Assembly (NCBI GenBank): GCA_016194825.1
Contig: JACQAR010000094.1
Location: 1 to 39,269, forward strand
DNA: 39,269 nt
From: Chlamydiia bacterium
Lineage (GTDB): Bacteria > Chlamydiota > Chlamydiia > Chlamydiales > SM23-39
Direction of reading: 5' to 3'
Shown here: one piece after another, positions 2,353 through 36,521 of the stretch
Position numbering within the stretch: the stretch's first letter is position 1
Layout of the letters: every line of letters starts with the position of its first letter
The notes under the pieces: generated by a model
The model's input: only the letters and a program-made list of their open reading frames with translations
Databases searched by the model: none
Told to the model about the DNA's origin: nothing
Made by a program: the position numbers and the translations under genes

Positions 2353-3339
2353 GTGAAAAAGATTTGTGTTCCTGGAGGGGCAGGCTATGTGGGCTCTCGC
2401 CTCGTCCCCGAATTACTAAAACGGGGCTATCACGTCAATGTGCTCGATTTGTATCTATACGGAGACGAGGTTCTCGAAAAGCATCCTCATCTCACCCAAA
2501 TCAAAGGCGATATCCGAGATCCCAAGGTAGTGGAAAAGGCTCTTGATCAATGTAAAGCCGCTTTACATTTGGCTTGCATCTCCAATGATCCGAGCTTTGA
2601 GCTCAATCCAGAGCTTGGTAAGTCGATTAATTTGGATTCTTTCGAGCCCTTTGTGCAAATCGCCAAGAAAAAAGGGGTAGAGCGCTTTATTTTTGCCTCT
2701 TCTTCTTCTGTATATGGAGTCAAAGAAGTTCCCAATGTCACCGAAGATATGGAGTTGGAGCCTTTGACCGATTACTCCAAATACAAAGCGGAATGTGAAA
2801 AAATCCTACTTAAGTATGCTTCGGATGATTTCATCTGCACGATTTTACGGCCTGCAACTGTATGTGGGTTTGCCTCTCGCCAAAGGCTTGATGTAGTGGT
2901 CAACATCTTGACCAACTTGGCCTATCGCACCGGCAAGGTGAAAGTAATGGGTGGCGCGCAGATGCGTCCCAATATCCACATCGAAGATATGGTCCGCGCT
3001 TATATCCATGTACTGGAAGCGCCGAAAGAGAAGATCCAGAAGAAGATCTACAACGTCGGTTATCACAATCACACTGTCTTGTCGCTTGGCCAGATGGTGC
3101 AGCAGATTGTTGGGAAAAAGCGGCCTGTTGATCTGGTGGTAGAGCCGACAAACGACAACCGCTCCTACCACGTTTCATCGAAGAAAATTGCCGAAGAGCT
3201 CGGATTTCATCCGAAGTACACGATCGAAAATGCCATCGAAGATCTTTTGCAGGCCTTTGAATCTGGCAAACTGCCCAATTCGCTCGAAGATCACCGCTAT
3301 TTCAACATCAAAACGATGAAGGCAATCCAATTACAATGA
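2353..3339 (+). CDS. NAD-dependent sugar epimerase/dehydratase (extended SDR)
   Basis: GTG start preceded by GAGGA. Rossmann motif GGAGYVGSRL, HLAC strand, SSSSVYG, and catalytic YSKYK (YxxxK). Confidence 0.75.
   Translation: MKKICVPGGAGYVGSRLVPELLKRGYHVNVLDLYLYGDEVLEKHPHLTQIKGDIRDPKVVEKALDQCKAALHLACISNDPSFELNPELGKSINLDSFEPFVQIAKKKGVERFIFASSSSVYGVKEVPNVTEDMELEPLTDYSKYKAECEKILLKYASDDFICTILRPATVCGFASRQRLDVVVNILTNLAYRTGKVKVMGGAQMRPNIHIEDMVRAYIHVLEAPKEKIQKKIYNVGYHNHTVLSLGQMVQQIVGKKRPVDLVVEPTNDNRSYHVSSKKIAEELGFHPKYTIENAIEDLLQAFESGKLPNSLEDHRYFNIKTMKAIQLQ
2549..2569. repeat. Inverted pair A of the GCTTTACAT word
   Basis: aatgtaaagc-c-gctttacatt has perfect 10-nt arms. It lies inside the epimerase CDS, where it encodes CKAALH. 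Confidence 0.9.
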
Positions 3340-4322
3340 AAACCCTTGTCACAGGTGGAGCCGGATTCATTGGAAGCCATCTCGTCGATTTGCTTCTGAA
3401 AAAAGGGCATCAGGTGACTGCCTTTGATAATCTTTGCGGCGGATGGATGAAGAATTTGGCCGAAGCCCAGCAACATCCTCGCTTCCGTTTTGTGCAAGGA
3501 GATATTCGCAATAGGAACAGTTTAGAAGGGCTCTTTGATGGCGTAGATTGGGTCTTTCACTTGGCGGCTTTAGCCGACATCGTCCCTTCCATGGAAAAGC
3601 CGCGCGATTATTTTGAAACAAACGTAGATGGCACCTTCAATGTGCTGGAAGCGGCTAAAGAGGCTCGTGTGAAGCGCTTTCTTTACGCGGCGTCTTCTTC
3701 GTGTTACGGCATTCCCTCACAATATCCGACTCCAGAAACAGCGCCCATTATGCCACAATACCCTTACGCTCTGACCAAATATCTCGGCGAGCAGTTAGTG
3801 CTGCATTGGGCGCAAGTATATAAGCTGCCCGCCCTGTCGCTGCGCCTGTTCAATGTCTACGGACCCCGATCCCGTACTACTGGTGTGTATGGCGCAGTCT
3901 TTGGCGTCTTTTTGGCACAAAAACTCCACGGCAAGCCGTTTACTGTGGTCGGAGATGGCAAACAGACACGAGATTTTACTTATGTAGCCGATGTAGCAGA
4001 TGCTTTTTATACCGCAGCCGAGTCTAATCTGAGCAACGACTTTTTGAACATTGGGAGCTCGGGCCATTACAGTGTCAATCGTTTGGTGGAATTGCTCGGA
4101 GGCTCTGTGACCTACATCCCTAAGAGACCGGGTGAGCCTGACTGCACCTTTGCAGATGTAACGGAGGTCCAACAGAAGCTCAACTGGAAGGCGAGAGTCT
4201 CTTTTGAAGAAGGGGTTCAGCGCCTTTTGTCTCGGATCAACGACTTCAAAGATGCGCCTCTTTGGGAGCCACAATCGATTGAGAGAGCAACCGAGAATTG
4301 GTTTAAATACCTGTCAAAATAG
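3336..4322 (+). CDS. NAD-dependent nucleotide-sugar epimerase/dehydratase (extended SDR)
   Basis: ATGA overlap with the upstream gene. Motifs VTGGAGFIGSHL, HLAALA, ASSSSCYG, and YALTK (YxxxK). Confidence 0.75.
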   Translation: MKTLVTGGAGFIGSHLVDLLLKKGHQVTAFDNLCGGWMKNLAEAQQHPRFRFVQGDIRNRNSLEGLFDGVDWVFHLAALADIVPSMEKPRDYFETNVDGTFNVLEAAKEARVKRFLYAASSSCYGIPSQYPTPETAPIMPQYPYALTKYLGEQLVLHWAQVYKLPALSLRLFNVYGPRSRTTGVYGAVFGVFLAQKLHGKPFTVVGDGKQTRDFTYVADVADAFYTAAESNLSNDFLNIGSSGHYSVNRLVELLGGSVTYIPKRPGEPDCTFADVTEVQQKLNWKARVSFEEGVQRLLSRINDFKDAPLWEPQSIERATENWFKYLSK

Positions 4323-4330: not shown

Positions 4331-4942
4331 ATGTTTGCAAAACGCTTTCACGACTTAAGCCGCTCATTTGCTTCCACTGTATACACAGCCTCATCTGGCC
4401 CTATTACGGAAGATGCGGCTTTGGAAAAAGCGTTTGAAATGCTCGGCAGAGTGCACGATCAAAGAGGGATTGCTTATGTCATTGGCAATGGGGGGAGCGC
4501 TGGCATTGCCTCTCACTTCAGTACCGATCTGATCAAGTCTTTGAAGATCCCCTCTTCGACCCTATTTGACTCAAATTTAGTCACGTGCCTTTCTAACGAC
4601 TACGGATATGATCAAGTCTTTTGCTATCCTCTGGAACACATATTGCGACCGAATGATCTTTTAGTAGCGATCAGCAGTTCTGGGAAATCGCCCAATATCA
4701 TCCAAGCAGCGCAGGTTGCTTTGAGAAAAGGGGTTTCTCTCATCACGCTCAGCGGATTTTCCGACCAGAATCCCCTTCGCACCATGGGGGATCTAAATTT
4801 TTGGGTTGCGCAGAACGATTACGGTCTCGTTGAGACGACCCATTTTTTCCTGCTGCACACCATCATTGATTTTTGGAACCAACAAGCAAGAGTGAAGGAA
4901 TATGCCCGAATCCTTGGATCTACGGCAGCAAAGCAAAATTAG
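4331..4942 (+). CDS. gmhA: SIS-domain sedoheptulose-7-phosphate isomerase
   Basis: Motifs IGNGGSAGIASHFSTDL and AISSSGKSPNI, and a C-terminal HFFLLHTIID region that aligns by eye with E. coli GmhA. Confidence 0.75.
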   Translation: MFAKRFHDLSRSFASTVYTASSGPITEDAALEKAFEMLGRVHDQRGIAYVIGNGGSAGIASHFSTDLIKSLKIPSSTLFDSNLVTCLSNDYGYDQVFCYPLEHILRPNDLLVAISSSGKSPNIIQAAQVALRKGVSLITLSGFSDQNPLRTMGDLNFWVAQNDYGLVETTHFFLLHTIIDFWNQQARVKEYARILGSTAAKQN

Positions 4943-6452
4943 AACATTCGATGCGCTGCAAAGCGCTCTCGAAGAGGACCGTAGGCACCAGCGCATCATC
5001 GTACAGTGTCATGGGGTGTTTGATTTGCTCCATCCCGGTCATATTCGTCACTTCCAAGAAGCGAAAGCGCAAGGAGATCGGTTGATTGTCACCTTGACAC
5101 CCGATCGTTTTGTCAATAAAGGGCCTGGCCGTCCCGTATTCAATGAGCAGTTGCGCCTTGAATCGATTGCTGCGCTGCAAATGGTGGACTACGTCGTTCT
5201 GAATGACTCCCCAGACGCCGTATCGGCGATCCGGAGAGTGTGTCCTTCGCTTTACGTGAAGGGAGTTGAGTATAAACAGCACGACCAGGATGTGACGGGC
5301 AAAATCTCCGAAGAAGCACGTGCCGTGGAAGAGGTAGGAGGAGCGATCTATTACACAGATGACATCGTGTTTAGCTCTTCTTCGCTTCTGAATCGCTATT
5401 TTGATACTGCTCCTCCGAAAGTCACCGAATTTTTGTCTCAACTTCGTAAAGAATACACAACGCAAGATATCATCCAAAAAATCGATGCCCTTTCTCAATT
5501 GAATGTACTGGTGGTCGGAGATGCCATCATTGATGAATACCAATATACGCGGATTCTTGGACAGACAGGCAAAGGTCTCCATATGGTGGCGCGCTGTTTG
5601 GATCGAGAAGTTTTTCTGGGTGGCTCATTGATCATTGCCAATCATGTAGCCCAGTTTGCGAAACAGGTGACTTTAGTTACGGCTTTAGGAAAAAACTGTC
5701 CACATCTCCATTTCATCCGCGAGAATTTAGAACCGAATGTGCGTGGAGAGTTCACATTTTTAGATAAGTCACCGACCTTAACAAAAAAAAGATATGTCTG
5801 GAAAGACGGTACAACTCTCACCAAACTTTTTGAAACATATTCGAATCAAGAAGAAGCTTTAAATGAAGCGCAAACAGGGCAAATCATCGATTTCATACGG
5901 AAAGAAGCTGCTCACTATGATTTGATTCTAGTATCTGATTTTGGGAATGGCTTTACGAATCATCCCCTGGTTGAAGCGCTGTGCGACGTACCTGGCTTTT
6001 TGGCCCTCAATACCCAAACCAATAGCGGTAATCGAGGCTTCAACGTGGTAACCAATTACTGCAGAGCGGATTATATCTCGCTCAATGAGCCAGAACTGAG
6101 ATTAGCGGCACACGATTCCAAGAGCGCTCTAGAGGGTATAGCGGCTGATATTTGCCAGATTCTGAACTGTCCCCTTTTGTCAGTAACTCAAGGGGTGCAT
6201 GGAGTCAGTTGCTTTTCAAGAGAAGAGGGTGTTGTACATATTCCTGCATTCGCGACCCACAGTGTAGATCGGATCGGTGCAGGCGATAGCTATCTATCGC
6301 TCTCTTCTCTGTGCCTAGCTCACGGGTATTCCACTATGCTGGCCGGGTTTATCGGTTCAATCGCAGCAGCAATGAGCGTTCAAGTTGTAGGGAATCAAGA
6401 ATCTGTGAAAAAAGTTCCCCTCTGCAAATTCATCACGCGTCTGCTCAAGTAA
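4902..6452 (+). CDS. Bifunctional sugar-phosphate nucleotidyltransferase (N-terminal) and PfkB sugar kinase (C-terminal), HldE-like with reversed domain order
   Basis: The N-terminus has CHGVFDLLHPGHIRHF (HxGH cytidylyl/adenylyltransferase, RfaE domain II-like) and DYVVLNDSPD...YVKGVEY. The C-terminus has VLVVGDAIIDEY...GGSLIIANH and DRIGAGDSYL (PfkB). It overlaps gmhA by 41 nt, so the start is uncertain (TTG at 4911 is also possible). Confidence 0.7.
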   Translation: MPESLDLRQQSKIRTFDALQSALEEDRRHQRIIVQCHGVFDLLHPGHIRHFQEAKAQGDRLIVTLTPDRFVNKGPGRPVFNEQLRLESIAALQMVDYVVLNDSPDAVSAIRRVCPSLYVKGVEYKQHDQDVTGKISEEARAVEEVGGAIYYTDDIVFSSSSLLNRYFDTAPPKVTEFLSQLRKEYTTQDIIQKIDALSQLNVLVVGDAIIDEYQYTRILGQTGKGLHMVARCLDREVFLGGSLIIANHVAQFAKQVTLVTALGKNCPHLHFIRENLEPNVRGEFTFLDKSPTLTKKRYVWKDGTTLTKLFETYSNQEEALNEAQTGQIIDFIRKEAAHYDLILVSDFGNGFTNHPLVEALCDVPGFLALNTQTNSGNRGFNVVTNYCRADYISLNEPELRLAAHDSKSALEGIAADICQILNCPLLSVTQGVHGVSCFSREEGVVHIPAFATHSVDRIGAGDSYLSLSSLCLAHGYSTMLAGFIGSIAAAMSVQVVGNQESVKKVPLCKFITRLLK

Positions 6453-6461
6453 AAGATTTCT

Positions 6462-6490
6462 TTGCAAAAAAGAATCTATCTCTGTAAAAT
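6462..6490 (+). promoter_or_regulatory. Sigma-70/66-like promoter ahead of GT11 paralog 1
   Basis: TTGCAA (6462-6467), a 17-nt spacer, then TAAAAT (6485-6490). The ATG lies only 8 nt downstream, which implies a near-leaderless transcript. Confidence 0.35.
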
Positions 6491-6498
6491 TTTAACTT

Positions 6499-7380
6499 AT
6501 GTTTTACAAATTCCTCGTTTTCGTTTTCTCTGGCTTGTCTGTCTGTATCTACGGAACCTCCTGCATCACCTGTGAATTTGAAGGACAGCTCGGCAATCAT
6601 CTCTTTCAGATTGCCGCCGCAACGGCGTATGCTTTAGACCATCAGTGCGAAGCAGTTTTCCCTATGCTCATCGCCTATACCCATGGACAGAGTTATTATC
6701 GCGACGTCTTGCATCGTGTGAGTCTTAAGTCAATTCCCAGACATAGTAAATTGTATCATCATTCTGAAGATCATTATACGCGGTACAGTCCGATTCCTAA
6801 TGTGCACAACAAAACTCTTGTATTGCACGGGCTTTATCAAACCGAAAAGTATTTTGCCCATCATGCCGAAACGATCCGAGCCCTCTTTGCTCCTTCTGAG
6901 AGGATTTTGCAAGAGATTAACGAAAAATATGGAACTCTGTTGCAAAACAACAAGACAGTAGCCATTCACGTAAGAACCTTTATTCCTGATGGGAGATCTC
7001 CAGAGTTATTTGCGGAAGACAACGTTTGGTGGGATTATTTCGCGCAAGCCATCGAGTATTTCCCTTCAGAATATCTGTTTCTCGTATTCATGGACGCGCC
7101 CCATGTGGTGGTGCCGAATTTCCCAAAACTACCTGGTCGCAATATCCAATTCATCATCAACGAGCCGTATTATATCGACTTTTATATGATATCTCTTTGT
7201 AACTATGTTGTGGTTTCTCCTGGCTCTACTTTTTCTTGGTGGGCTGCTTGGATCAATAAGCATGCAGATAAAGTGATCATAGCTCCTGACCGATGGACAG
7301 GTCACTCTGGTGAAGAAGTGATCCCAAATACTTGGATTCGGATCCCCAGCCTGCCTCATGCCCCTAGAGGACGGAAATGA
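6499..7380 (+). CDS. GT11-family glycosyltransferase (alpha-1,2-fucosyltransferase-like), paralog 1, with N-terminal hydrophobic leader
   Basis: N-terminal GQLGNHLFQIAAATAYAL (GT11 motif GGLGNQxFQYA), VAIHVRT, and STFSWWAAWI (GT11 C-terminal motif). The leader is MFYKFLVFVFSGLSVCIYG. Confidence 0.7.
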   Translation: MFYKFLVFVFSGLSVCIYGTSCITCEFEGQLGNHLFQIAAATAYALDHQCEAVFPMLIAYTHGQSYYRDVLHRVSLKSIPRHSKLYHHSEDHYTRYSPIPNVHNKTLVLHGLYQTEKYFAHHAETIRALFAPSERILQEINEKYGTLLQNNKTVAIHVRTFIPDGRSPELFAEDNVWWDYFAQAIEYFPSEYLFLVFMDAPHVVVPNFPKLPGRNIQFIINEPYYIDFYMISLCNYVVVSPGSTFSWWAAWINKHADKVIIAPDRWTGHSGEEVIPNTWIRIPSLPHAPRGRK

Positions 7381-8198
7381 GACTTTTTTATTGGTTACTT
7401 TTGATCGCAGCTAACGTAACAGGAGTGGCCTGGGGAGCTGAATATGTGATGATTTGTCAGGAAGGAGGGCAATTTGGGAGTCAAATGTTTTCGTATGCCA
7501 TGGTCCCTGAAATAGAAGTGGATCAAACTACTTTCCAATGTCTTCCTTATATTGGAAAGAATGGCGCGCCACTTCCTTATGTAAAAGGGAATGTTTGTCT
7601 ATGTAGTACATCCCACGAGCTCTCTTATTTTCACGAGTATCGTGAAAAAATTCGAGAGCTATTCGGGCCTTCTGATGTCGTTATTGCAGAATTAAAAGAG
7701 AAATACGATTTCATATTGAATCATCCTAAAACCGTAGCTGTTCATGTACGGACGTATCATCCGATTTTGTTAAAACATTGCTGTTTGGGATCCGATTACT
7801 ATCAGAATGCTCTGAATCAATTTGATGAAGATCATTTATTTGTGATTTTTTCTGATCGGATTGAATGGTGTAAAAAGCACCTAGATCTGCAAGGCAAGAA
7901 TGCAATATTTATTGAGGGGAACCATCATATCCTCGATTTCTATCTGATGAATTATTGCAAAAACATAATCACATCTAATTCAACTTTTAGCTGGTGGGCC
8001 GCCTATCTCAAGAAGGATCCTAGCGGATTAATCATTGCCCCAAAGCGTTGGTTTTATGATCCGTATGATTCAGATCCGTACGTAAATCGAATAACGAAAC
8101 AGTTTTATCCGAAGGAGTGGATCATACTTCCAGCAGCGTCTCCGTCCCGGGATTATAATTTGTTGGAATTTGATACTACATCAATCGATGAACAGTAG
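7377..8198 (+). CDS. GT11-family glycosyltransferase, paralog 2 (shortened N-terminal region), with leader
   Basis: ATGA overlap. Motifs GGQFGSQMFSYA, HPKTVAVHVRTYHP, and SNSTFSWWAAYLKK. The leader is MRLFYWLLLIAANVTGVAWG. It is close to paralog 3 but lacks ~37 aa after the first motif. Confidence 0.65.
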   Translation: MRLFYWLLLIAANVTGVAWGAEYVMICQEGGQFGSQMFSYAMVPEIEVDQTTFQCLPYIGKNGAPLPYVKGNVCLCSTSHELSYFHEYREKIRELFGPSDVVIAELKEKYDFILNHPKTVAVHVRTYHPILLKHCCLGSDYYQNALNQFDEDHLFVIFSDRIEWCKKHLDLQGKNAIFIEGNHHILDFYLMNYCKNIITSNSTFSWWAAYLKKDPSGLIIAPKRWFYDPYDSDPYVNRITKQFYPKEWIILPAASPSRDYNLLEFDTTSIDEQ

Positions 8199-8207
8199 GA
8201 GTTTTAG

Positions 8208-8876
8208 GTGAGAAATTTAATCATTGCGTGTCTTTTATTTTCGCAAAGCTTGATAAGTCAGGAGTTTCACTCTCAAGCTTATCAAGATCAGTTTGTTCAT
8301 CATTTGCTGTATAAACTTCTTAATAAGCAAGATGAGGGGCATTATCTTGAAATTGGAGCGTGGCAGCCGATTTATATTAATAATACTTACGTGTTTGAAA
8401 AAGACTTCGGATGGAAAGGTGTGAGCATTGATATCTCAGATGCCTATGTACCTGATTGGAAAAAAAACCGTCAAAATATGTTGTTGATCCAAGATGCGAC
8501 AGAAGTAGATTATAATGCGCTGTTACTCTCTTTTCCGTGTATTATTGATTATCTTTCTCTAGACGTTGATGGTAATTATGATGCTGTCTTGCGAAAAATA
8601 CCGCTTAATACCTACAAATTTAAGGTAATTACTATAGAGCATGATTATTACAGATATGGAGATGTCTATAGGAGCAAGGAGCGAGAAATTCTTTCTTCTT
8701 TTGGTTACTGCCTGATTTGCTCTGATGTGTCAATGGGTGGTGATAAATTTGAAGATTGGTGGATACATCCTGATTGTTTTCCTGCTGAAATTGTAATGAA
8801 ATTGCAAGATTTAAATCTGCACGGAAAGGAATATTATCAAATAATAGAAAATCTACAGTCTAGTGAAATCTTATGA
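8208..8876 (+). CDS. Putative FkbM-like SAM methyltransferase with N-terminal leader
   Basis: GTG start with AGGAG upstream. Motifs YLEIGAWQP (motif I-like) and IDYLSLDVDGNYDAVLRKIP...VITIEHD (resembles the FkbM DvEGxE block). The leader is MRNLIIACLLFSQSLISQ. Confidence 0.4.
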   Translation: MRNLIIACLLFSQSLISQEFHSQAYQDQFVHHLLYKLLNKQDEGHYLEIGAWQPIYINNTYVFEKDFGWKGVSIDISDAYVPDWKKNRQNMLLIQDATEVDYNALLLSFPCIIDYLSLDVDGNYDAVLRKIPLNTYKFKVITIEHDYYRYGDVYRSKEREILSSFGYCLICSDVSMGGDKFEDWWIHPDCFPAEIVMKLQDLNLHGKEYYQIIENLQSSEIL

Positions 8877-9805
8877 AGATTTTTGTTTTAGTTTTTCTGA
8901 TTGTTGGTAAATGTCTGGCTAGGGATTATGTAACAATTTGCGAGGAATGGGGGCAATTTGGTAGCCAACTTTTTTCCTATGCAATCGTAATGAGTTGGGC
9001 ATGGACTCATGATAAAATACCAGTTTTCTCAAAAGAATTTTTAATTGGGAGGCCTGGGGGGCAACTCAATTACGATCGAATTTTTCATCGGTTACCGCAA
9101 AATATTTCGGGAGATATACATATTAATCCCGATAAGCCTTATCACATTGGCAAATATCAGAGTATAGGGGGAATCCCCTGTCATTTTGTTCCTGGCAATG
9201 TTTGCATGTGTGGGGTAACGCATGAATTTACATACTTTGATCCATATAAAGATCGAATTCGTGAGCTTTATGCAGCACCAGCTGAAGTCTTAAGTGAATT
9301 AAAAGGAAAATATTCTCGGATCCTTGATCATCCCAAAACGGTGGCAGTTCACATAAGGACCTATCATCCTCAACTTGAATTACATTGTTTTTTAGGCGAA
9401 GAGTATTACCAAACAGCAATGGATTTTTTTGATGATGAGCATTTATTTGTGGTATTTTCAGATAGAATAGAGTGGTGTAAAAGGCATTTGAATTGGCAAG
9501 GCGAGAATGTTGTGTTTATTGAGGGTAATGATTATATAACTGATTTTTATTTAATGACTTTTTGTAAAAATCTTGTGACCAGCAATTCTACTTTTAGTTG
9601 GTGGGCAGCATACCTCAAGCAAACTCCTGATGGATTAATCATTGCTCCGAATCGATGGTTTTATGACCCATACGACGCCGATCCATATTTAAATCGAATT
9701 TCAAAGAATTTCTATCCGAACGATTGGGTTATTCTCTCTGTTCCATCACCGGAGCGAGATTGGACTTTAATAGAGTACAAAACAAGTTCGCTTCATGAAA
9801 ATTAA
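8873..9805 (+). CDS. GT11-family glycosyltransferase, paralog 3, with leader
   Basis: ATGA overlap. Motifs WGQFGSQLFSYA, HPKTVAVHIRTYHP, and SNSTFSWWAAYLKQ. The leader is MKIFVLVFLIVGKCLA. Confidence 0.7.
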   Translation: MKIFVLVFLIVGKCLARDYVTICEEWGQFGSQLFSYAIVMSWAWTHDKIPVFSKEFLIGRPGGQLNYDRIFHRLPQNISGDIHINPDKPYHIGKYQSIGGIPCHFVPGNVCMCGVTHEFTYFDPYKDRIRELYAAPAEVLSELKGKYSRILDHPKTVAVHIRTYHPQLELHCFLGEEYYQTAMDFFDDEHLFVVFSDRIEWCKRHLNWQGENVVFIEGNDYITDFYLMTFCKNLVTSNSTFSWWAAYLKQTPDGLIIAPNRWFYDPYDADPYLNRISKNFYPNDWVILSVPSPERDWTLIEYKTSSLHEN

Positions 9806-9811
9806 AAAATC

Positions 9812-9840
9812 TTGACGGTATGAAAAATTTTCTTTATAAT
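9812..9840 (+). promoter_or_regulatory. Near-consensus sigma-70/66 promoter for the GT17 gene
   Basis: TTGACG (9812-9817), a 17-nt spacer, then TATAAT (9835-9840). GGAGG (9860-9864) lies 4 nt before the ATG at 9869. Confidence 0.55.
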
Positions 9841-9868
9841 CCATCGGTACGTTTTTAACGGAGGTTTT

Positions 9869-27292: not shown

Positions 27293-27293
27293 A

Positions 27294-28325: not shown

Positions 28326-28346
28326 AATGTAAAGCAGCTTTACATT
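28326..28346. promoter_or_regulatory. Inverted pair C of the GCTTTACAT word, in a divergent intergenic region (candidate operator)
   Basis: aatgtaaagc-a-gctttacatt has perfect 10-nt arms. It is the only copy outside a CDS, and it lies between divergent starts at 28295 (-) and 28376 (+). Confidence 0.5.
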
Positions 28347-28367
28347 GCACTTTCGGTGCGCTATCAT
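28339..28367 (+). promoter_or_regulatory. Possible promoter for the 28376-35437 operon, with its -35 embedded in palindrome C
   Basis: TTTACA (28339-28344), a 17-nt spacer, then TATCAT (28362-28367). The ATG lies 8 nt after the -10, giving near-leaderless geometry. Confidence 0.4.
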
Positions 28368-28375
28368 CAAAGGAT

Positions 28376-29569: not shown

Positions 29570-30480
29570 AAATGTTAGTCACCGGTGCAAGTGGATTTTT
29601 AGGGAGATTTTTGGTGCCGCACCTCAAAAAAGAGGGGCATGAGGTTGTTGAAGTTTCTTCCAAAAACTGCGATCTGACGCAAGCCGACTCGCTGACCCAA
29701 TTCAATGCTCACCGCTTCGATCAGATCTACCATTTGGCCGCATGGACGCAGGCAGGTGATTTTTGTCTGCGCCATCCAGGAGAGCAGTGGCTCATCAACC
29801 AAAAACTCAACACGCATATGCTCGACTGGTGGCAGAAGCGTCAGCCGCAGGCGAAGATGATTGCCATGGGCACCAGCTGCTCCTACGATCCTCAGCTTCC
29901 TCTAGAAGAAAAAAATTATATGGTAGGAGAGCCGATCGATAGCCTCTTTACCTACGCGATGACCAAGAGAATGCTCTATGCAGGTCTTATGGCTTTACAT
30001 AAGCAATATGGACTGGAATTTCTCTATGTGATTCCTTCTACTTTATATGGCGGCGGCTATCATACCGACGGAAGACAGCTCCACTTCATCTTCGATTTGA
30101 TCCGGAAGATTCTCCGAGGCAAGCTCTACGGCGATGCTGTCGTGCTGTGGGGCGATGGGATGCAAAAAAGAGAGCTCGTGCATGTGCAAGATTTCATCCA
30201 GAACTTACAGCTATTGGCGGAAAGGGAAAAAAATACCTTGATCAACATTGGCGAGGGAAAAGAGCATTCTATCCGAGAGTATGCCCAACTGATCTGCGAA
30301 GAGGTGGGCTATCCATTTGAGAAGGTGCAATTCGATGTGTCCAAATATGTGGGGGCTCGCTCGAAGGTGCTCTCCATTCAGAAGTTGCAGCACATTCTAG
30401 GGCACTACTCGACTGTTCCCTTGAAACAAGGGATCCGAGAGGTCATTGCGTGGTTTCAAGAGCATTCGGAAGTTTTGTAA
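29566..30480 (+). CDS. GDP-L-fucose synthase-family (Fcl/WcaG-like) nucleotide-sugar epimerase/reductase
   Basis: Motifs VTGASGFLGRFL, HLAAW, MGTSCSYDPQLPLEE and YAMTKRM (YxxxK). The layout is typical of Fcl and related GDP-6-deoxyheptose reductases. ATGA overlap. Confidence 0.65.
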   Translation: MKMLVTGASGFLGRFLVPHLKKEGHEVVEVSSKNCDLTQADSLTQFNAHRFDQIYHLAAWTQAGDFCLRHPGEQWLINQKLNTHMLDWWQKRQPQAKMIAMGTSCSYDPQLPLEEKNYMVGEPIDSLFTYAMTKRMLYAGLMALHKQYGLEFLYVIPSTLYGGGYHTDGRQLHFIFDLIRKILRGKLYGDAVVLWGDGMQKRELVHVQDFIQNLQLLAEREKNTLINIGEGKEHSIREYAQLICEEVGYPFEKVQFDVSKYVGARSKVLSIQKLQHILGHYSTVPLKQGIREVIAWFQEHSEVL

Positions 30481-31457
30481 AAAAGTGCCCTTTTTTCTTT
30501 GTGAACCGGATGCGGTGGGAAGAAAAGAGACGCTCTCCTCTGCCTAGCTGGGCCCAAGTCCGCATTGAGGGACCCAATGACGTGGCAAGAACCGTTGCTG
30601 AAATCGAGCGGTGTGGCTTGGGGCAAGCGGCGCAGCTGACCCGATTTTCGATCCAGAAGGGGCGCATCGTTTCTCCGACGATCCAGCAAGCATGGCAACA
30701 CCCTCGCGTTCTTAAGATGCGATTTTTTATCCAGAGACTGTTGCCTTTGCCAGATGTGGAGTTTTTGTTCACGAGTCACGATTTGTACGAAGATCCACAA
30801 TTATTGGCGTGTACCCATGCTCCTGTATTTGCGATTTCTAAAACGTCTCAAAATGCAAAGGTCGTCCTATTCCCTCATGTAGAATGGCTCTTTCATTGGC
30901 AGCGGTTGAAGAGAAAACTCCAACAGCAAGAAATGGCATGGGAACAGAAAAAACCTGTGCTCTTTTGGCGGGGAGCGACGACTGGCTTTACATCAAGGTA
31001 TCCGATTGTTCAGCTCTCTCGAAAATATCCCGAAGAAATCGATGCTCTTTTTTCCTCTTTCCCGCAAATCGATGAGGCCGTCCAGAGACGGCTGATGGAG
31101 GAAAATCTTGTCGGACAGGGGGTTGCTGAAGAGGCTCAAGCGCAATTTCGGTATCTGTTATCGCTCGACGGCAATTGCTTTGGCGGCTCGTTCTTTTGGC
31201 AGTTGGCGAGCGGCTCGGTCGTGTTTAAGCAAGATTCCGATTACCAGGAATGGTACTATCCGGGTCTATCTCCCTATGTCCACTACATTCCTTTTGCTCG
31301 CAATGGCGCGGAAAAAAAAAAAAAAAAGAGGTGGCCCGAAACGCACGAAGAAGAGTGCAAGGGATTGGTGAGGAGCGCGATAAAATTCTCGGAGGAGATT
31401 TTGTCGGTAGAGGCTATGATGGCCTATGCCGACTATCTGTTGCATCAGCTTATATGA
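30450..31457 (+). CDS. GT90 / CAP10-domain glycosyltransferase (eukaryote-type lipopolysaccharide-modifying family)
   Basis: LFWRGATTG...RYLLSLDGNCFGGSFFWQLASGSVVFKQDSDYQEWYYPGLSPYVHYIPF matches the CAP10 core. GTG 30450 has GAGAGG upstream, and ATG 30510 is an alternative start. The gene contains the A16 tract. Confidence 0.6.
   Translation: MVSRAFGSFVKKCPFFFVNRMRWEEKRRSPLPSWAQVRIEGPNDVARTVAEIERCGLGQAAQLTRFSIQKGRIVSPTIQQAWQHPRVLKMRFFIQRLLPLPDVEFLFTSHDLYEDPQLLACTHAPVFAISKTSQNAKVVLFPHVEWLFHWQRLKRKLQQQEMAWEQKKPVLFWRGATTGFTSRYPIVQLSRKYPEEIDALFSSFPQIDEAVQRRLMEENLVGQGVAEEAQAQFRYLLSLDGNCFGGSFFWQLASGSVVFKQDSDYQEWYYPGLSPYVHYIPFARNGAEKKKKKRWPETHEEECKGLVRSAIKFSEEILSVEAMMAYADYLLHQLI
31312..31327 (+). 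repeat. Homopolymeric A16 tract inside the GT90 CDS
   Basis: Counted directly as g-a(16)-gagg. It is read as E-K-K-K-K-K-R. All three forward frames are open across it. Confidence 0.95.
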
Positions 31458-32530
31458 AATATCTGATCCAAAACCGCTTTTCTCTGGCTGTCATGAAGAC
31501 GATGGATGGGTTGTTGCGCTTCTTCACCCGGCATCGGCGGGAATTTCCGATAGAAAAAGCGCCTCAGAAAATTTTGGTTTGCAATACAGGATTTATGGGA
31601 GACGCGGTGATTGCGACAACGGTCCTCCCTGCTCTTAAAAAAAAGTTTCCCGATGCAAAAATTGGCTTTTTAGTGGCGAGCAAGTCGGTCCCAGTAATCA
31701 AAGAGCTTCCCGAGGTGACATGGATCCACTCTTTTGATCATGGGTATGTGAACAAATCGCTCAAACAGCATCTGCAAACAGCTCGGACAGCGCTGCAAGA
31801 GATCCGAGCAGTAGGCTATGATGTCGCAATCAATCTGCAGCCTTATTTTCCGAATGGGATCGGACTGTTATATCGCTCGAAAATCCCTGTGCGGATCGGT
31901 TATGCAACGGGAGGACTGGGCCCTCTATTGACGCACTGCGTTCCTTTTGCCGGAACGGAAAAGTACATCGGGTTTGCGTTTTTGAAACTTCTGCAGCCCC
32001 TGCATATCGCTGCGGAATTCGAATCGCCTTTGCCCTATTATGCATGCAAACAACAGCAAACAGATGCCTTTGTCATCCACATGGGCACCTCTTCAGAGTT
32101 GAAAGAATGGCCATTCGAATCGTGGAAAGAGCTGATCAAACTGCTCGGCGATAGACCGCTCTTTTTCACAGGACAAGGGGAGCGTGAATGGGAGCGAGCA
32201 GACGCCGCTTGTCAATTGGCAAAAAATGGGATAAATTTGTGTAACCGGCTCAACTGGCGTCAATTTGTGGAAACAGTACAACAAGCAAAGTGTCTCATCA
32301 GCGTCGATTCAGCAGCCATCCATGTTGCTGCGGCAGCCAAGGTGCCGACAGTCGCTCTTTTTACAGGTATCGCAGACATGCGCCTATGGCTTCCTCCTCA
32401 CCCTCATTGCAAAGGATTGATTCATAAAGTACTCTGCTCGCCTTGTTTGAATAAACGGGGCTGTGCATTCATGGCTTGCATCCGGCAGATCACGCCCAAA
32501 GAAGTATTAGCTGCGGTAAAAAGTTTATGA
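31454..32530 (+). CDS. GT9-family glycosyltransferase (LPS heptosyltransferase-like), copy 1
   Basis: The start is set at MKYLIQ (ATG 31454), which forms an ATGA overlap with the GT90 stop. Motifs GFMGDAVIATTVLPALKKKFPDAKI and SVDSAAIHVAAAAKVPTVALF (GT9 signature). The track ORF extends upstream to 31250 only because the frame is open. Confidence 0.75.
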   Translation: MKYLIQNRFSLAVMKTMDGLLRFFTRHRREFPIEKAPQKILVCNTGFMGDAVIATTVLPALKKKFPDAKIGFLVASKSVPVIKELPEVTWIHSFDHGYVNKSLKQHLQTARTALQEIRAVGYDVAINLQPYFPNGIGLLYRSKIPVRIGYATGGLGPLLTHCVPFAGTEKYIGFAFLKLLQPLHIAAEFESPLPYYACKQQQTDAFVIHMGTSSELKEWPFESWKELIKLLGDRPLFFTGQGEREWERADAACQLAKNGINLCNRLNWRQFVETVQQAKCLISVDSAAIHVAAAAKVPTVALFTGIADMRLWLPPHPHCKGLIHKVLCSPCLNKRGCAFMACIRQITPKEVLAAVKSL

Positions 32531-34323
32531 GATTTCCCCATATCCGTCACATTCTGCTGGGCAAAGCGAGCAAAAATTTATGGCCCTTTTCTCTCATGGC
32601 GGGACTCAATTTTATTTCCGCGCTCTTTGAGGGGTTGACCTTTGGATTTATCTTACTGGCGATGGGGGAATTGAGTGGAGGACAAAAGGGAGAAACAGGG
32701 GCTTTTTTGACTTGGGTCATGCACTACTTCCAGCTACAGGGAAGCTTTACCCTGTTCATTGTAGCCGGTGTCTGCATGCAAATTTTACGGAGTATGACCG
32801 CCTATGCCGGACAATATACTTCGATGATACTCGGGATTCGGATCCAGAATGAGGCGCAAGAAAAGATCTATTCCCAGATCTTGAAATTCTCTTTTGCCTG
32901 TGTCAATCGGTATAAAAGTGGAGATCTGCTCGAATACGCAAAGATGCCCGCTACCATGACAATGCCTCTGATGAATGCGCTGAACGGACTTGTGGTGTCT
33001 GCGCTGATGATTTTGATCCAACTCTGGATGATGGTCTACTTGTCTGTGCCACTCACTCTTTTAGTGATTGTGACGTTTGGCTCCATTACTTTGACGCAGA
33101 AAGTGGTGATCCGACGTATTTCCAAATACTCTCAGCACCTCCAAGAGCACATCGTCGATTTCAGCAAGCAAACCGTGCAAAGTTTGAATGGACTCAGAGC
33201 CATTCACACATTCTGTCGCCAAGCGGCGGTGATGGAGCGCATCCGGGGGACATTGGGGCGGATTGCAGAGCTGTCCAAGAGAATCATGCTCTGGAGTAAC
33301 ATCATCCCCTCCTTTAATGAAATCACCGGAATTAGTCTGGTCGCCGTATTTTTAGTGGTGGGACAAACGATTCTCTCTTCATCGGCCATTCCACTGCTTT
33401 TGACATTCATCCTCATTTTATATCGGCTGAATACTCGCATTCAGATGTTTCTGGTCAATCTCGGCGCGATTGCAGGCAATTGGGGGCAGGTGCTGCGGTT
33501 AGAAGAAATTCTAGATGAATCGGATAAGCAATTTATCTCCCATGAAGGGGTGCCTTTCCCCGGACTGCAGCATGTCATGGAGTTTCGAGACGTCTCTTTG
33601 AAGTATGAAAATACGAAAGAAGATGCGATCCGTTCCTTGCATGTGACCATTCGGAAAGGACAGACAGTGGCCTTTGTCGGCTCTTCTGGCGCAGGTAAAT
33701 CGAGCTTTTTGGATCTGTTACTGCGGCTCTACGATCCTACAAGTGGCCGCATTACCATCGATGGCATGGATCTGCGCACATTTGAGCTCACTTCTTGGCG
33801 CGATAAGATTGGGATGGTGAGTCAGGACACCTTCATTTTCAACGACACCATCGAAGAGAACATCCGCTTTGGGAAATTGGATGCGAGCAAAAAGGAAATT
33901 GAGCAGGCCGCCGTGTGGGCGCACGCCGACCAATTCATCGAGCGGTTGCCCGATGGCTATCAAACGGTATTGGGAGAGAGAGGATATCGCCTGTCGGGTG
34001 GACAAAGACAGAGGATTGCGTTGGCTCGTGCTTTGGTCCGCAATCCAGAGATTTTGATCCTCGATGAAGCCACGAGTAATCTTGATAGCCAATCGGAACG
34101 GGCCATCCAAAATGCCTTGGCACAGTTCTACGGACAAAAGACTCTGATCATCGTGGCGCATCGTCTCTCTACGATCTTCCACGCAGACCAAATCATTGTT
34201 CTGGAGCGTGGCTCTTTTATTGAAAGCGGAACACACCAAGAGCTATTGGAGACGAAGGGTCGTTATGCCAGCCTTTGGAACATCCAGTCGCAGCATGTAG
34301 ACAATATCTATGCGCGCGAATAA
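32527..34323 (+). CDS. ABC exporter, fused TMD-NBD half-transporter (MsbA-like)
   Basis: The start is set at MRFPHIR (ATG 32527), which forms an ATGA overlap. It has six hydrophobic segments, then Walker A GSSGAGKSS, signature LSGGQRQRIALARAL and Walker B ILILDEATSNLD. Confidence 0.85.
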   Translation: MRFPHIRHILLGKASKNLWPFSLMAGLNFISALFEGLTFGFILLAMGELSGGQKGETGAFLTWVMHYFQLQGSFTLFIVAGVCMQILRSMTAYAGQYTSMILGIRIQNEAQEKIYSQILKFSFACVNRYKSGDLLEYAKMPATMTMPLMNALNGLVVSALMILIQLWMMVYLSVPLTLLVIVTFGSITLTQKVVIRRISKYSQHLQEHIVDFSKQTVQSLNGLRAIHTFCRQAAVMERIRGTLGRIAELSKRIMLWSNIIPSFNEITGISLVAVFLVVGQTILSSSAIPLLLTFILILYRLNTRIQMFLVNLGAIAGNWGQVLRLEEILDESDKQFISHEGVPFPGLQHVMEFRDVSLKYENTKEDAIRSLHVTIRKGQTVAFVGSSGAGKSSFLDLLLRLYDPTSGRITIDGMDLRTFELTSWRDKIGMVSQDTFIFNDTIEENIRFGKLDASKKEIEQAAVWAHADQFIERLPDGYQTVLGERGYRLSGGQRQRIALARALVRNPEILILDEATSNLDSQSERAIQNALAQFYGQKTLIIVAHRLSTIFHADQIIVLERGSFIESGTHQELLETKGRYASLWNIQSQHVDNIYARE

Positions 34324-35437
34324 ATGGCTCCATTTCTTCGATCGGTATGGAGGAATCCCTCTTCTGTGGGCTTTGGGGCTATTGCGAAGGAAAAAAAAAC
34401 TTTCGGCTCCCATTGCGAGCTTCGGACTGCTCAATACCGCCGCTATCGGTGATACCATTCTCATCACCGGTGTGATCGCCGATCTGCAAGAGCAGTTTCC
34501 TGAGGCTAAAATCACGTTTTTTGTCGGCCCTTCCAACGTAGAAGCCGCACAACTCATTGCGGGGATCGAAGTAGTGCAGATCCAGGTGACCAAGTTGTGG
34601 CAGGCAATCCGAATCATCCGGCATCATCGAGTGGATGTGTGGCTTGATTTTGGCCAGTGGCCGAGAATCAATGGGCTCTTTTCTTATTTTGCCAAGGCTC
34701 GTTTCAAAGTGGGTTTTCAGACACCCAACCAGTATCGGCATTACATCTATGACCAAGCCATTCCCCATCGATACTGCCATGAATTGGAGAATTTCCGCAG
34801 CCTCCTGTGCCCTCTGGGGATTGTTGGGTCGCATGCCCCAAAGATTGTATTGCCACAGAGAGAAAAATCAGATGTAAAGCTGGCTTTACATTTGAATCCG
34901 GGTGGATCGCAAGCGCACCTGAAGCGGTGGCCAGAAAGTCATTGGGTCGCTTTGATTGATGCGGTAACCAAACAGGGATTGCAGGTTTTCCTAACAGGAG
35001 GAAAAGGGGATTGGCCCTTGTGCGAACGTGTGAAGAAACAGTGTGCGCAGCCTGAACAGATTGCGATTGTCGCAGGGCAGTTGTCCCTTCGGGAAACCGG
35101 CGAGCTGCTCTTATCTTGTGTTGCTCTGGTCACGGTGGATACGGGGATTATGCATTTGGGGGCGGCAGTTGGGTGTAAGACCTTGGCTTTACATGGTCCG
35201 AGCTCTGCAAAACGTTGGGGAGGGGTTGGATCGCATGTCATTCCGATCACGCCTAAAAAGGGCTATTCCCCCTGCTTGAGTCTTGGTTTTGAAAAGGGGT
35301 GCACGCAAAGTCACTGCATGGAAGCGATTGAGCCAAGCCAGGTGATGCAAGTTCTTTTCGAAGAAATAGAGAAAGAAAAAACCAAAAAAAGGCCATTGTC
35401 GGCAAATAGAGGATGGCTCCATCCGATCCACAGATGA
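34310..35437 (+). CDS. GT9-family glycosyltransferase (heptosyltransferase-like), copy 2
   Basis: Motifs AAIGDTILITGVIADLQEQFPEAKI, LHLNPGGSQAHLKRWP and TVDTGIMHLGAAVGCKTLALHGP. The last ~25 aa extend beyond the point where copy 1 ends, and they overlap the convergent gene. Confidence 0.75.
   Translation: MRANKWLHFFDRYGGIPLLWALGLLRRKKKLSAPIASFGLLNTAAIGDTILITGVIADLQEQFPEAKITFFVGPSNVEAAQLIAGIEVVQIQVTKLWQAIRIIRHHRVDVWLDFGQWPRINGLFSYFAKARFKVGFQTPNQYRHYIYDQAIPHRYCHELENFRSLLCPLGIVGSHAPKIVLPQREKSDVKLALHLNPGGSQAHLKRWPESHWVALIDAVTKQGLQVFLTGGKGDWPLCERVKKQCAQPEQIAIVAGQLSLRETGELLLSCVALVTVDTGIMHLGAAVGCKTLALHGPSSAKRWGGVGSHVIPITPKKGYSPCLSLGFEKGCTQSHCMEAIEPSQVMQVLFEEIEKEKTKKRPLSANRGWLHPIHR
34872..34891. repeat. 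Inverted pair D of the GCTTTACAT word
   Basis: atgtaaagc-tg-gctttacat has perfect 9-nt arms and a 2-nt spacer. It lies inside GT9 copy 2, where it encodes DVKLALHL. Confidence 0.85.
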
Positions 35438-36521
35438 TCAGGTAATTGATGAGTCCTAATAAGAGCGTCTTGTGTGTCGTACTCAAATGCCTGCGACATC
35501 CCTTGATCAACAGGGCCGAGAACATCGCTAGAAAGAAACCAAATACTCCTAACCACCCAAATGATTCAGCCACACCAGCATAGATAACCTCCAAAATGCC
35601 TTCAAAGGGTTTATTCGATAAAAATCCGGTATCGCTAAACATCTGGTCGATGTGCTGTCTTCTGCCTCCGAAGGATGTGTCCACAAAAAATTGAAATGAA
35701 AATCCAAAGAAACGCCCGAAAGCCAATAAAAATAGGGCCACTGCACTCACCGCAATCGCCATTTTCACAATGGCCTTTGCCTTATCCTTCAGAATGAACC
35801 AAGGATAGAGGATTTCATGCAAAAGAAGTCCGATCCAGACCGTGCGTGAGAGGGTCAATAGAAACGAGAGTTTTACAATCCATTGGCAATAGCGCCTTCT
35901 TTCCAAATAGCAATACAGAGACAGCGCCATGATCAAGCAAGCGCCGTAGAGATTCCCATTGTTATAGGTCGAGATCAGTTTAAAGATGCTGCCGCGGGCA
36001 ATACTTTTGTTTTCTAACTCCCCTACATCCCCCATATTCACAGTCAAAAGAGGGATTTGTAAAAATTTCCCCGTATAGAACTTTAGAAAGAACAGAGCGA
36101 TGCCGTAGCTGGCGATAAACAGCATTCCTTTTTTAAACAGATTGAAAAACCATTCTTGGTCGAGCTCTTCAATAGCTCGAGAAAAGAGTCCCAAAAATAC
36201 ATAGGGTAGGAAAAGAAAGCTGATCCAAAAAGAAATGGTCATCCCGAAATTCGAGATACCGTTCATCGCCATCGTATAGAAGGCGATGACTTGAAAGGGA
36301 ATCAAGAAAATCAGGGCCTGCAGGCGCTCTTTGTGGATGTAAAAAGGGCCTGCAAACAGGGTCCCCACCCCGATGCATCCGAGCAAAAGATATCCCCAAG
36401 TCAGCGGGATGCCTGCGAGTTTGATGCCGCCTTTGGGAAAAACCAGCAGAAAGGCAAGGAGCAGAAAGGCGTAGGGTTTCCAGTGAAAGAGCTGAATGCC
36501 AGGGCGGCCAAGGCGCATCAT
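35253..36521 (-). CDS. Polytopic membrane protein of the O-antigen ligase/polymerase (Wzy_C, WaaL-like) family
   Basis: It has roughly 10 or more hydrophobic segments and the block LSFLLTLSRTVWIGLLL, which resembles the conserved SR-containing loop/helix of Wzy_C proteins. It sits next to GT9 and ABC genes. Confidence 0.5.
   Translation of the reverse strand: MMRLGRPGIQLFHWKPYAFLLLAFLLVFPKGGIKLAGIPLTWGYLLLGCIGVGTLFAGPFYIHKERLQALIFLIPFQVIAFYTMAMNGISNFGMTISFWISFLFLPYVFLGLFSRAIEELDQEWFFNLFKKGMLFIASYGIALFFLKFYTGKFLQIPLLTVNMGDVGELENKSIARGSIFKLISTYNNGNLYGACLIMALSLYCYLERRRYCQWIVKLSFLLTLSRTVWIGLLLHEILYPWFILKDKAKAIVKMAIAVSAVALFLLAFGRFFGFSFQFFVDTSFGGRRQHIDQMFSDTGFLSNKPFEGILEVIYAGVAESFGWLGVFGFFLAMFSALLIKGCRRHLSTTHKTLLLGLINYLIICGSDGAILYLPTMAFFWFFLSLFLRKELASPGLAQSLPCSDFACTPFQNQDSSRGNSPF

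Follow-up and report, generated by a model that had tools for sequence, protein, structure and literature searches.

A putative variable envelope-glycan locus with heptose-activation genes beside topA in environmental Chlamydiota

Contig JACQAR010000094.1 of the Chlamydiia bacterium assembly GCA_016194825.1, analysed here over its full length of 39,269 bp (the window), contains 37 genes, as defined from the list of open reading frames (ORFs) and Pfam matches. Between positions 2353 and 36521, 35 genes are tightly packed, and these are flanked by a long thyX gene (681-2318) and a topA-SWIB fusion (36564-39146). The reading favoured here, with moderate confidence, is that this interval is a variable envelope-glycan locus that is found at a fixed chromosomal site beside topA in many environmental Chlamydiota and that makes a heptose-containing lipopolysaccharide (LPS) core or outer glycan. 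The conserved parts appear to be a WaaL-like protein and a convergent GT9 gene beside topA, together with a four-gene heptose operon at the thyX end, and the middle appears to be a mosaic of exchangeable modules. The LPS of Chlamydia is known from textbooks as a minimal, rough lipid A-Kdo3 molecule that carries neither heptose nor O-antigen. The loci compared here indicate that this generalisation holds for the Chlamydiaceae only and not for the whole phylum. Judging from these comparisons, the topA-side glycan locus is real and under-described, and it is not unique to this organism. No account of heptose, O-antigen or loci of this kind in environmental chlamydiae turned up in a search of the literature, which covered the Waddlia genome paper and a pangenome paper on chlamydiae.

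A Fixed Site with Variable Content

A member of the same family as the WaaL-like protein of the window (g36) is encoded directly after topA in the comparison loci L012, L081, L082/83 (Parachlamydiales HW387), L084 (Anoxychlamydiales), L085 and L088. A canonical Wzy_C protein is found after topA in L004, L007 and L014 (45.9-57.1 bits; cutoff 31.7), and a 5'-truncated one, scoring 31.5 bits and thus just below the cutoff of 31.7, is found in L002. A WaaL-like or Wzy_C protein therefore follows topA in at least 10 other chlamydial loci, and in L090 heptose-module genes adjoin topA. The glycan genes beyond this topA-side gene differ per locus and include ManC, GT4s, GT17, DAO, epimerases, C-methyltransferases, FkbM methyltransferases, a sulfotransferase, aminotransferases, ABC exporters and GT9. 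On the upstream side of topA, a region that the window stops short of, the relatives L081, L085 and L088 have a conserved neighbourhood of uvrD, GT9, rpoN and a Kdo hydroxylase gene (PF11004), directly next to topA, the last of which ties the neighbourhood to LPS.

Both anchors recur in the metagenome-assembled genome (MAG) GCA_018239895.1, in which topA (206,455-209,007) and thyX (approximately 240,514-242,148) are located 31.5 kb apart on a single 484-kb contig. The interval between them is full of glycan genes, and those in common with the window are the heptose operon genes g02-g05 (56-78% identity), the 4,6-dehydratase and methyltransferase genes g16/g17 (72/47%), g20-g22, which encode a Zn-ADH and a split transketolase, and g36 (46%). 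The Parachlamydiaceae loci have different glycosyltransferase-like genes or unrelated genes after topA, and in two loci topA is followed by rpoN-uvrD. In L016, topA is followed by a 242-aa ORF and then by thyX-uvrB in inverted orientation. A reading of this locus as an empty site was considered and dropped, since the inverted thyX-uvrB fits an inversion or rearrangement as well as absence or loss.

The original prediction had called a heptosylated glycan island unusual for this lineage. This applies only in comparison with the Chlamydiaceae, since comparable topA-adjacent glycan clusters are widespread in the phylum (L004, L007, L012, L014, L081-L085, L088, L090). The comparison of thyX-topA synteny that it had itself put forward as a check found that equivalent clusters are to a large extent common in the phylum, including one MAG with an island between the same two anchors. 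On the present comparative evidence, equivalent loci can be regarded as common in public chlamydial MAGs.

Chlamydial Origin of the Contig

The right anchor is a TopA-SWIB fusion of 860 aa (36564-39146, minus strand; Pfam Toprim, Topoisom_bac, Zn ribbons and SWIB, the last at 68.6 bits). Among its 8000 homologues, the best are 74-81% identical, and the named ones of these come from Chlamydiales, Chlamydiia and Parachlamydiales MAGs. When each species is represented by a single genome, the top 18 TopA loci are all from chlamydial MAGs. The closest TopA proteins are from Parachlamydiales-labelled MAGs, and TopA of the Parachlamydiaceae is only 62-64% identical. The left anchor is a long ThyX of 545 aa with two Thy1 stretches (681-2318, plus strand; Pfam Thy1 152 bits), which is 67% identical to its counterpart in L016 and 73% to that in L087. 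The flanks are thus chlamydial, as had been claimed for them, and the identities of both anchors point to an uncultured environmental chlamydia that belongs neither to the Parachlamydiaceae nor to the Chlamydiaceae.

The island could alternatively be explained as foreign DNA inserted recently in this organism alone, or as an assembly chimera of chlamydial ends and non-chlamydial DNA. In line with this, neither of two window proteins looked up by exact sequence was found on another contig, and one cassette (7377-9805) has a GC content of 0.35-0.39 and a GC3 of 0.30-0.36, compared with a GC3 of 0.41-0.59 elsewhere. However, module homologues with 40-82% identity, spread along the whole interval, are found on chlamydial contigs that carry topA or thyX, the 31.5-kb island lies between the same anchors on the 484-kb contig described above, and GC equals that of the flanks throughout the interval, except in this cassette. 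The chlamydial homologues and the matching GC argue that the contig is not chimeric; an insertion or chimera is largely refuted and extremely unlikely. The cassette itself was probably acquired more recently than the rest of the locus.

Some MAGs labelled "Verrucomicrobia bacterium" (P0011, P0089, P0117) also carry the chlamydial TopA-SWIB fusion, with 74-76% identity, and a heptose-activation protein related to that of the window (P0313, see below) comes from GCA_018239895.1, which is likewise labelled Verrucomicrobia. These MAGs are probably mislabelled chlamydiae.

Gene Families in the Interval

Multiple glycan-related families score above the Pfam gathering score: a SIS protein, a CTP_transf_like and PfkB fusion, GT2, GT17, GT90, two GT9 and three Glyco_transf_11 proteins, an ABC_membrane and ABC_tran exporter, two Methyltransf_14 C-methyltransferases, FkbM and class-I methyltransferases, an NTP_transferase, a GHMP kinase and six extended short-chain dehydrogenases/reductases (SDRs). 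The glycan toolkit that had been described for this interval is therefore present, and among the families named for it, Wzy_C is the sole sub-threshold call (22.3 bits; cutoff 31.7). The interval holds approximately 11 glycosyltransferases, including those of the low-GC GT11 cassette. Genes that go beyond the earlier description encode a tandem WbuC cupin, a TIGR04372 glycosyltransferase, a split transketolase with a Zn-ADH, an APH-type kinase, a HAD-motif protein, two GT-B-like paralogues (assigned from a low-confidence model) and the SDR g26. The reported absence of Wzx, a Wzy pair, Wzm/Wzt and a phosphoglycosyltransferase also holds, as none of the 37 window proteins matches the Wzx, Wzz, Wzm/Wzt, Bac_transf or MraY/WecA families in Pfam or NCBIfam.

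The Predicted Heptose Operon at the thyX End

The operon next to thyX consists of four genes on the plus strand. The first two encode extended SDRs, g02 (2353-3339; Pfam Epimerase), which is 72-75% identical in L007, L086 and L087, and the GalE/WbpP-like g03 (3336-4322), a candidate nucleotide-heptose epimerase that is 78-82% identical in the same loci. On the heptose_epim model they score 68 and 114.6 bits, respectively (cutoff 274.6), and the GalE and LegB models score better. These are followed by a GmhA-like SIS isomerase, g04 (4331-4942; SIS_2), which is 54-61% identical in relatives and has gmhA as its best NCBIfam match (82.6 bits; cutoff 209.45). The fourth gene, g05 (4902-6452), encodes an HldE-like bifunctional enzyme with swapped domain order, in which the nucleotidyltransferase is N-terminal and the PfkB kinase is C-terminal. 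It scores 148.9 bits on the HldE model (cutoff 521), and its two domain scores are 102.6 (cutoff 345) and 95.2 (cutoff 181.5).

The complete arrangement SDR-SDR-GmhA-like-HldE-like is found in L007, L086 and L087 with 54-82% identity. The swapped order of g05 is common to its best 120 homologues (62-76% identity), the named ones of which are from Chlamydiales MAGs, including the above-mentioned P0313. The g05 fusion is about as conserved as TopA, which suggests that the operon belongs to the core of the clade rather than to an accessory gene set of the island. A phosphatase for this route could be encoded further along the interval, where an APH-family kinase (Pfam APH) and a HAD-type phosphatase, g19, are located (17003-18533, minus strand). 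The latter has a DxDxT motif (MTIGIDFDNT), a weak NT5C match (E 0.0039) and no NCBIfam match, and it is a candidate GmhB substitute on the basis of its motif.

The Putative GDP-Heptose Branch and the Fcl-Like Pair

A second set of heptose genes is located in the middle of the interval. The SDR g26 (24621-25574, plus strand), labelled Cj1427-like, matches PDB 6VO6/6VO8 with approximately 430 bits and 61% identity over 307 aa; 6VO6 is taken here to be Campylobacter Cj1427, a presumed link between code and protein. Cj1427 has been described as a GDP-heptose C4-dehydrogenase (PMC10680097). An HddC-like nucleotidyltransferase, g28, and an HddA-like GHMP kinase, g29 (together 26609-28295, minus strand), were provisionally assigned to GDP-heptose activation from NCBIfam and PDB matches. 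HddC (142.5 bits; cutoff 300) and HddA (140.9 bits; cutoff 600) are the best NCBIfam matches of these proteins, both below cutoff, and the best PDB matches of g29 are heptose-7-phosphate kinases (120-124 bits), with fucokinase at 73-77 bits.

A metagenome scan with g26 resulted in 80 loci, and g28- and g29-like genes are present alongside the g26 homologue in 48 of them. Of the 80 loci, 28 have an Fcl-like gene, seven a GmhA-like gene and seven a split transketolase. Both L090, in which the module lies beside topA, and L091, which mirrors the divergent g29|g30-g31...GT9 layout of the window with 65-77% identity, are among these loci, and they tie the GDP-heptose module to chlamydiae. A putative GDP-heptose branch, made up of the HddA-like, HddC-like and 6VO6-like proteins, is well supported by these matches and co-occurrences. 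Horizontal transfer was considered, since g26 and a Campylobacter protein are 61% identical, and was rejected, as the family is 53-74% identical across the 80 loci and thus slow-evolving. Regarding the two heptose-activation sets that had been proposed for the window, the enzyme families (SIS, CTP_transf_like with PfkB, NTP_transferase and GHMP kinase) stand, and the assignment at equivalog level does not, since all are below the NCBIfam cutoffs.

A Zn-ADH and a split transketolase, encoded as separate N and pyr/C subunits (g20-g22; 18530-21331, minus strand), are 48, 27 and 43% identical to proteins in L088. The split transketolase (19533-21331) is found inside or beside the GDP-heptose modules of seven otherwise different loci (L126, L128, L142, L143, L147, L157, L168). 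This co-occurrence suggests a role in heptose chemistry, and the enzyme probably supplies sedoheptulose 7-phosphate.

Divergent from the HddA-like gene, a C-methyltransferase, g30, and an Fcl-like epimerase/reductase, g31, form a conserved pair (28376-30480, plus strand), with 68%/63% identity in L084 (Anoxychlamydiales) and 74%/65% in L091. It had been suggested that the glycan is fucosylated. If this were correct, the Fcl-like enzyme would make GDP-fucose and the three GT11 proteins would add fucose to the O-chain of a smooth LPS. The GT11 part of this claim stands, since three proteins score above the Pfam GT11 threshold; the best NCBIfam and PDB matches of g31 are GDP-L-fucose synthases, and a WaaL-like protein is present. 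The fucose pathway itself is weakly supported. Gmd was not found in the window (best gmd score 76.8 bits; cutoff 415), g31 reaches only 138.4 bits on the Fcl model (cutoff 500), and its partners are the C-methyltransferase and, in the 28 loci mentioned above, g26-like GDP-heptose genes. In addition, Wzy/Wzz or Wzm/Wzt proteins for a polymer are missing from the window. The equivalent heptose C4-reductases of Campylobacter and GDP-fucose synthase are members of one family (PMC10680097, PMC7949155). The absence of Gmd and the fixed pairing with a C-methyltransferase suggest that g31 is less likely to be a fucose synthase than a C4-reductase acting on a 4-keto heptose or deoxysugar, and a smooth fucosylated LPS is considered unlikely. 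In L093, the GDP-heptose module is flanked by GT11-like genes, which is only a hint on the GT11 donor.

A perfect 21-bp palindrome, AATGTAAAGC-N-GCTTTACATT, is present at 2549-2569, 17404-17424 and 28326-28346, and no copies were expected. The last copy is located within the 80-bp divergent gap between the HddA-like gene and the C-methyltransferase operon and coincides in part with the -35 hexamer of a promoter-like site. Sites resembling promoters and terminators are no more common in the window than in shuffled sequence. The palindrome core TGTAAAGCNGCTTTACA is found in seven of the 168 fetched loci. Six of these are chlamydial, and the seventh is L091, a metagenome contig with the layout of the window. 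The palindrome could serve as an operator or be a repeat element specific to the clade.

GT9 Proteins, Exporter and WaaL-Like Protein

At the topA end, two heptosyltransferase-family GT9 genes and an exporter gene are located on the plus strand. The first GT9 protein, g33 (31454-32530; Pfam 79.1 bits, cutoff 22), has only GT9 proteins as PDB matches (3TOV, WaaF and WaaC). The second, g35 (34310-35437; Pfam 97 bits), has WaaF as its best PDB match and is 49-51% identical to proteins at the equivalent position in L006 and L081. Between them lies the gene for an ABC half-transporter of the MsbA/HepA/Sav1866 type, g34 (32476-34323), which is 39-46% identical in L005, L006 and L086. Its NCBIfam scores are 454 bits for the HepA family (cutoff 725), 367.7 for MsbA (cutoff 602) and 216 for PglK, and its PDB matches include Sav1866 (269 bits) and MsbA (253 bits). 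The MsbA-like exporter of the original prediction is thus retained as a member of the ABC-exporter family and not as an MsbA equivalog.

The Chlamydiota-specific polytopic membrane protein g36 (35253-36521, minus strand; Wzy_C 22.3 bits) belongs to a family with 856 detectable homologues, all annotated as hypothetical, and 15 of the 32 sampled members match Wzy_C weakly (E<=0.01). A profile search of the family against PDB sequences resulted in noise only, so that fold comparison alone is informative. The AF2 model of g36 has a pLDDT of 82.7, and its top Foldseek match is WaaL (7TPG; prob 1.00, TM 0.51-0.53), followed by the SEDS proteins FtsW and RodA. WaaL is known to have a conserved periplasmic Arg pair and a catalytic His, and in the 32 sequences of the g36 family R226 and R287 are invariant and no His is. 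The description of g36 as Wzy_C/WaaL-like is therefore supported by the fold and not by the Wzy_C gathering score. The g36 family is not claimed to be orthologous to the canonical Wzy_C proteins adjacent to topA, since hhalign shows no relation between the two groups.

The 3' ends of the convergent GT9 and WaaL-like genes share 185 nt (35253-35437), a stretch that encodes the non-conserved C-terminal tail of g36, and the same arrangement is observed in L081 with an overlap of 62 nt. One g36-family protein, P0228 (42% identity, 421 aa), is found on a 3.79-Mb contig named Aeribacillus sp. FSL M8-0254, which is odd for a chlamydial family and could be contamination or transfer.

PglL-type enzymes share the Wzy_C fold, and the product could be attached to proteins or to another lipid, in which case g34 would act like PglK on an undecaprenyl-linked oligosaccharide and g36 would be a PglL-type O-oligosaccharyltransferase. 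This would fit the divergence of g36 and its lack of an invariant His, the 216-bit PglK match of the exporter and the many surface autotransporters that are exposed by Chlamydiae. It is considered quite improbable given the two GT9 proteins in the window, the Kdo hydroxylase flanking the site in relatives, the best fold match of g36, which is WaaL, and the absence of a PglC- or WecA-type initiator from the window. A capsule or exopolysaccharide that is exported without ligation to LPS is judged very unlikely: no Pfam match to KpsMTESD, Wza/Wzc or Wzx/Wzy was found among the window proteins, and the site has conserved GT9 and WaaL-like genes. This is despite the best NCBIfam match of the exporter, the HepA family for heterocyst polysaccharide export, and despite the GDP-heptose modification genes being capsule genes in Campylobacter (PMC10680097).

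Proposed Route to a Heptose-Containing Glycan

A heptose-containing LPS core or outer glycan is preferred over these alternatives. The two GT9 proteins of the window and the Kdo hydroxylase beside the site in relatives provide a link to LPS, and the near-constant WaaL-like gene argues for a ligation step. The substrates, the LPS acceptor and the order of steps given below are proposals built on gene families, synteny, conservation and the sharing of modules. Sedoheptulose 7-phosphate would be isomerised, and ADP-type activation would provide heptose for the GT9 enzymes, which would extend Kdo-lipid A. In parallel, GDP-heptose would undergo C4 oxidation, epimerisation or C-methylation, reduction and O-methylation, involving the HddA- and HddC-like enzymes, g26, the C-methyltransferase and the Fcl-like reductase. 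A separate deoxysugar branch would use the 4,6-dehydratase, the cupin and C- and O-methylation steps. The approximately 11 glycosyltransferases would assemble the oligosaccharide on the cytoplasmic face, with as acceptor either lipid A-core directly, in the style of lipooligosaccharide (LOS) and with the ABC exporter acting as MsbA, or undecaprenyl phosphate, in the style of Helicobacter pylori Wzk/WaaL. The ABC exporter would then flip the product, and the WaaL-like protein would complete the attachment on the periplasmic side.

Several observations weigh against this route. The contig carries no initiating transferase and no lpx, kds or waaA gene. Every heptose or fucose enzyme is below its NCBIfam equivalog cutoff, although gmhA, HldE, HddA, HddC and Fcl are the best matches of their proteins, and the domain order of g05 is the reverse of that in enterobacterial HldE, which has an N-terminal PfkB kinase and a C-terminal adenylyltransferase. 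GmhB is not recognisable in the window, where only the HAD motif of g19 is found, and an RmlC-type C3/C5 epimerase is missing (no dTDP_sugar_isom cupin), with only the tandem WbuC cupin g12 present. The exporter is not an MsbA equivalog, and an ABC exporter is found in only four of about 12 comparable loci. Finally, g36 is below the Wzy_C gathering score, has no invariant or near-invariant His in the 32 family sequences and belongs to a family with no hhalign relation to the canonical Wzy_C proteins that follow topA in other loci.

Comparison with Known Systems

The LPS of H. pylori is reportedly made with WecA, stepwise glycosyltransferases including fucosyltransferases, the ABC flippase Wzk and WaaL (Hug et al. 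2010). The locus resembles this system in having an ABC half-transporter and a WaaL-type protein without Wzx, Wzy or Wzm/Wzt, and also in its predicted heptose-rich core, GT11-type enzymes and many single-addition glycosyltransferases. In contrast to H. pylori, the window has no WecA-type initiator, its exporter is no nearer to PglK than to MsbA or HepA, and its WaaL-like protein is sub-threshold for Wzy_C and lacks the conserved His. The phase I LPS locus of Coxiella burnetii is responsible for the C-methyl branched sugars virenose and dihydrohydroxystreptose and for a polymeric O-antigen with Wzm/Wzt-type export. Compared by description only, the two have in common an obligate intracellular lifestyle and a large LPS glycan locus with sugar C-methyltransferases and heptose; Coxiella, however, is an unrelated lineage, and its O-antigen is a polymer made via a Wzm/Wzt-type system.

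With the enterobacterial inner-core system (GmhA, HldE, GmhB, HldD, WaaC/WaaF, MsbA and WaaL), the locus shares the families of the isomerase, kinase/nucleotidyltransferase, SDR, GT9, exporter and ligase-like protein. In contrast to that system, all are below the equivalog thresholds, the domain order is reversed and GmhB is not recognisable. Furthermore, the chlamydial locus is hypervariable between relatives, as O-antigen loci are. In Campylobacter jejuni, ADP-heptose is used for the LOS core, and GDP-heptose, modified through HddA, HddC, Cj1427/MlghA, MlghB and MlghC, is used for the capsule (PMC10680097, PMC7949155). The window likewise has two predicted parallel routes of heptose activation, HddA- and HddC-like genes adjacent to a gene for an Fcl-family reductase, the protein g26 with its 61% identity to 6VO6, and methyltransferases. 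Unlike C. jejuni, the window has no Kps export genes and has a tandem WbuC cupin in place of an RmlC-type epimerase; it adds C-methyltransferases, and its HldE-like domains are swapped.

Implications for Chlamydial Envelopes

The enzyme families and the overall logic are already known, and the finding, which is comparative-genomic only, would extend a known kind of system. At a fixed site, many environmental chlamydiae have a glycan locus that is large, modular and rapidly changing and that resembles the enterobacterial O-antigen locus in its behaviour; this variable-locus biology is open to testing. A more specific proposal, put forward tentatively and with somewhat less than even confidence, is that environmental chlamydiae carry a serotype-like hypervariable LPS outer-glycan locus at topA, with a His-less WaaL-like family and a domain-swapped HldE. 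If true, the LPS of environmental chlamydiae would be heptosylated and strain-variable, in contrast to the invariant Kdo3-lipid A of the Chlamydiaceae, and loss of the locus would mark the transition to the pathogenic family. Nucleotide-heptoses would then also be made inside eukaryotic cells, and ADP-heptose is known to act as an innate-immune agonist in animals. Should the product be attached to LPS, the locus would provide a handle for typing and for the study of host range in protists, and it would suggest that simplification of the envelope accompanied the move to animal pathogenicity. It would also offer unstudied enzymes, namely the domain-swapped HldE-like fusion, the divergent WaaL-like family and the C-methylating heptose and deoxysugar branches.

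Other Modules and Minor Features

The only intergenic gaps left by the 35 island genes, as seen from the ORF list, are at 6453-6498, 9806-9868, 10715-10895, 24588-24620 and 28296-28375. Two gene starts were revised to abut their upstream neighbours, that of the first GT9 gene from 31250 to 31454 and that of one GT-B-like gene to 26612.

After the heptose operon, a GT11-family glycosyltransferase gene is located on the plus strand (6499-7380; Pfam 46.6 bits, cutoff 23.9), followed on the same strand by the low-GC cassette (7377-9805), which consists of a GT11 gene, a gene for a 222-aa protein with a signal-peptide-like N-terminus and another GT11 gene (Pfam 92 and 87.7 bits). A 65-nt repeat is common to the GT11 paralogues. 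Next is a GT17-family glycosyltransferase gene (9869-10714, plus strand; Pfam 94.2 bits), the product of which is 37-48% identical in L084 and L085. Between this gene and the convergent FkbM gene, a 35-nt inverted repeat is found (10745-10779/10836-10870; 86% complementary, with 56 nt between the arms), which may be a bidirectional terminator or a mobile-element remnant at a module junction.

The deoxy-, branched- and methyl-sugar module (10896-17045, minus strand) encodes an FkbM methyltransferase, the tandem WbuC cupin g12, a methyltransferase, a C-methyltransferase, a short SDR, the RmlB-like 4,6-dehydratase g16 and the methyltransferase g17; g16 and g17 are 72% and 47% identical, respectively, in L087. 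Beyond the transketolase genes, three glycosyltransferase genes are located on the minus strand (21256-24587), assigned to GT2 and TIGR04372 by Pfam and NCBIfam and, in the case of g25 (23472-24587), to a GT-B-like type from the fold of its paralogue. This paralogue, g27 (25545-26612, minus strand), is 35% identical to g25. A fold search (Foldseek with an AF2 model) for the GT-B-like protein placed PimA, MshA and BshA on top with E values of approximately 1e-7, which is only suggestive at a pLDDT of 56.7. A GT90-family glycosyltransferase gene (30450-31457, plus strand; Pfam 102 bits) precedes the first GT9 gene.

Scans of the window for Rfam families and tRNAs found nothing. A 430-bp ORF-free stretch before thyX (250-680) contains 29-nt inverted repeats (324-352/566-594; 90% complementary) with no Rfam match. 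A terminal Phe is typical of outer-membrane beta-barrels, and positions 1-246 of the window hold the 3' end of a gene with a product ending in ...NGLTVNARLDF, for which weak homologues (29-32% identity) are found in the chlamydial loci L003 and L004.

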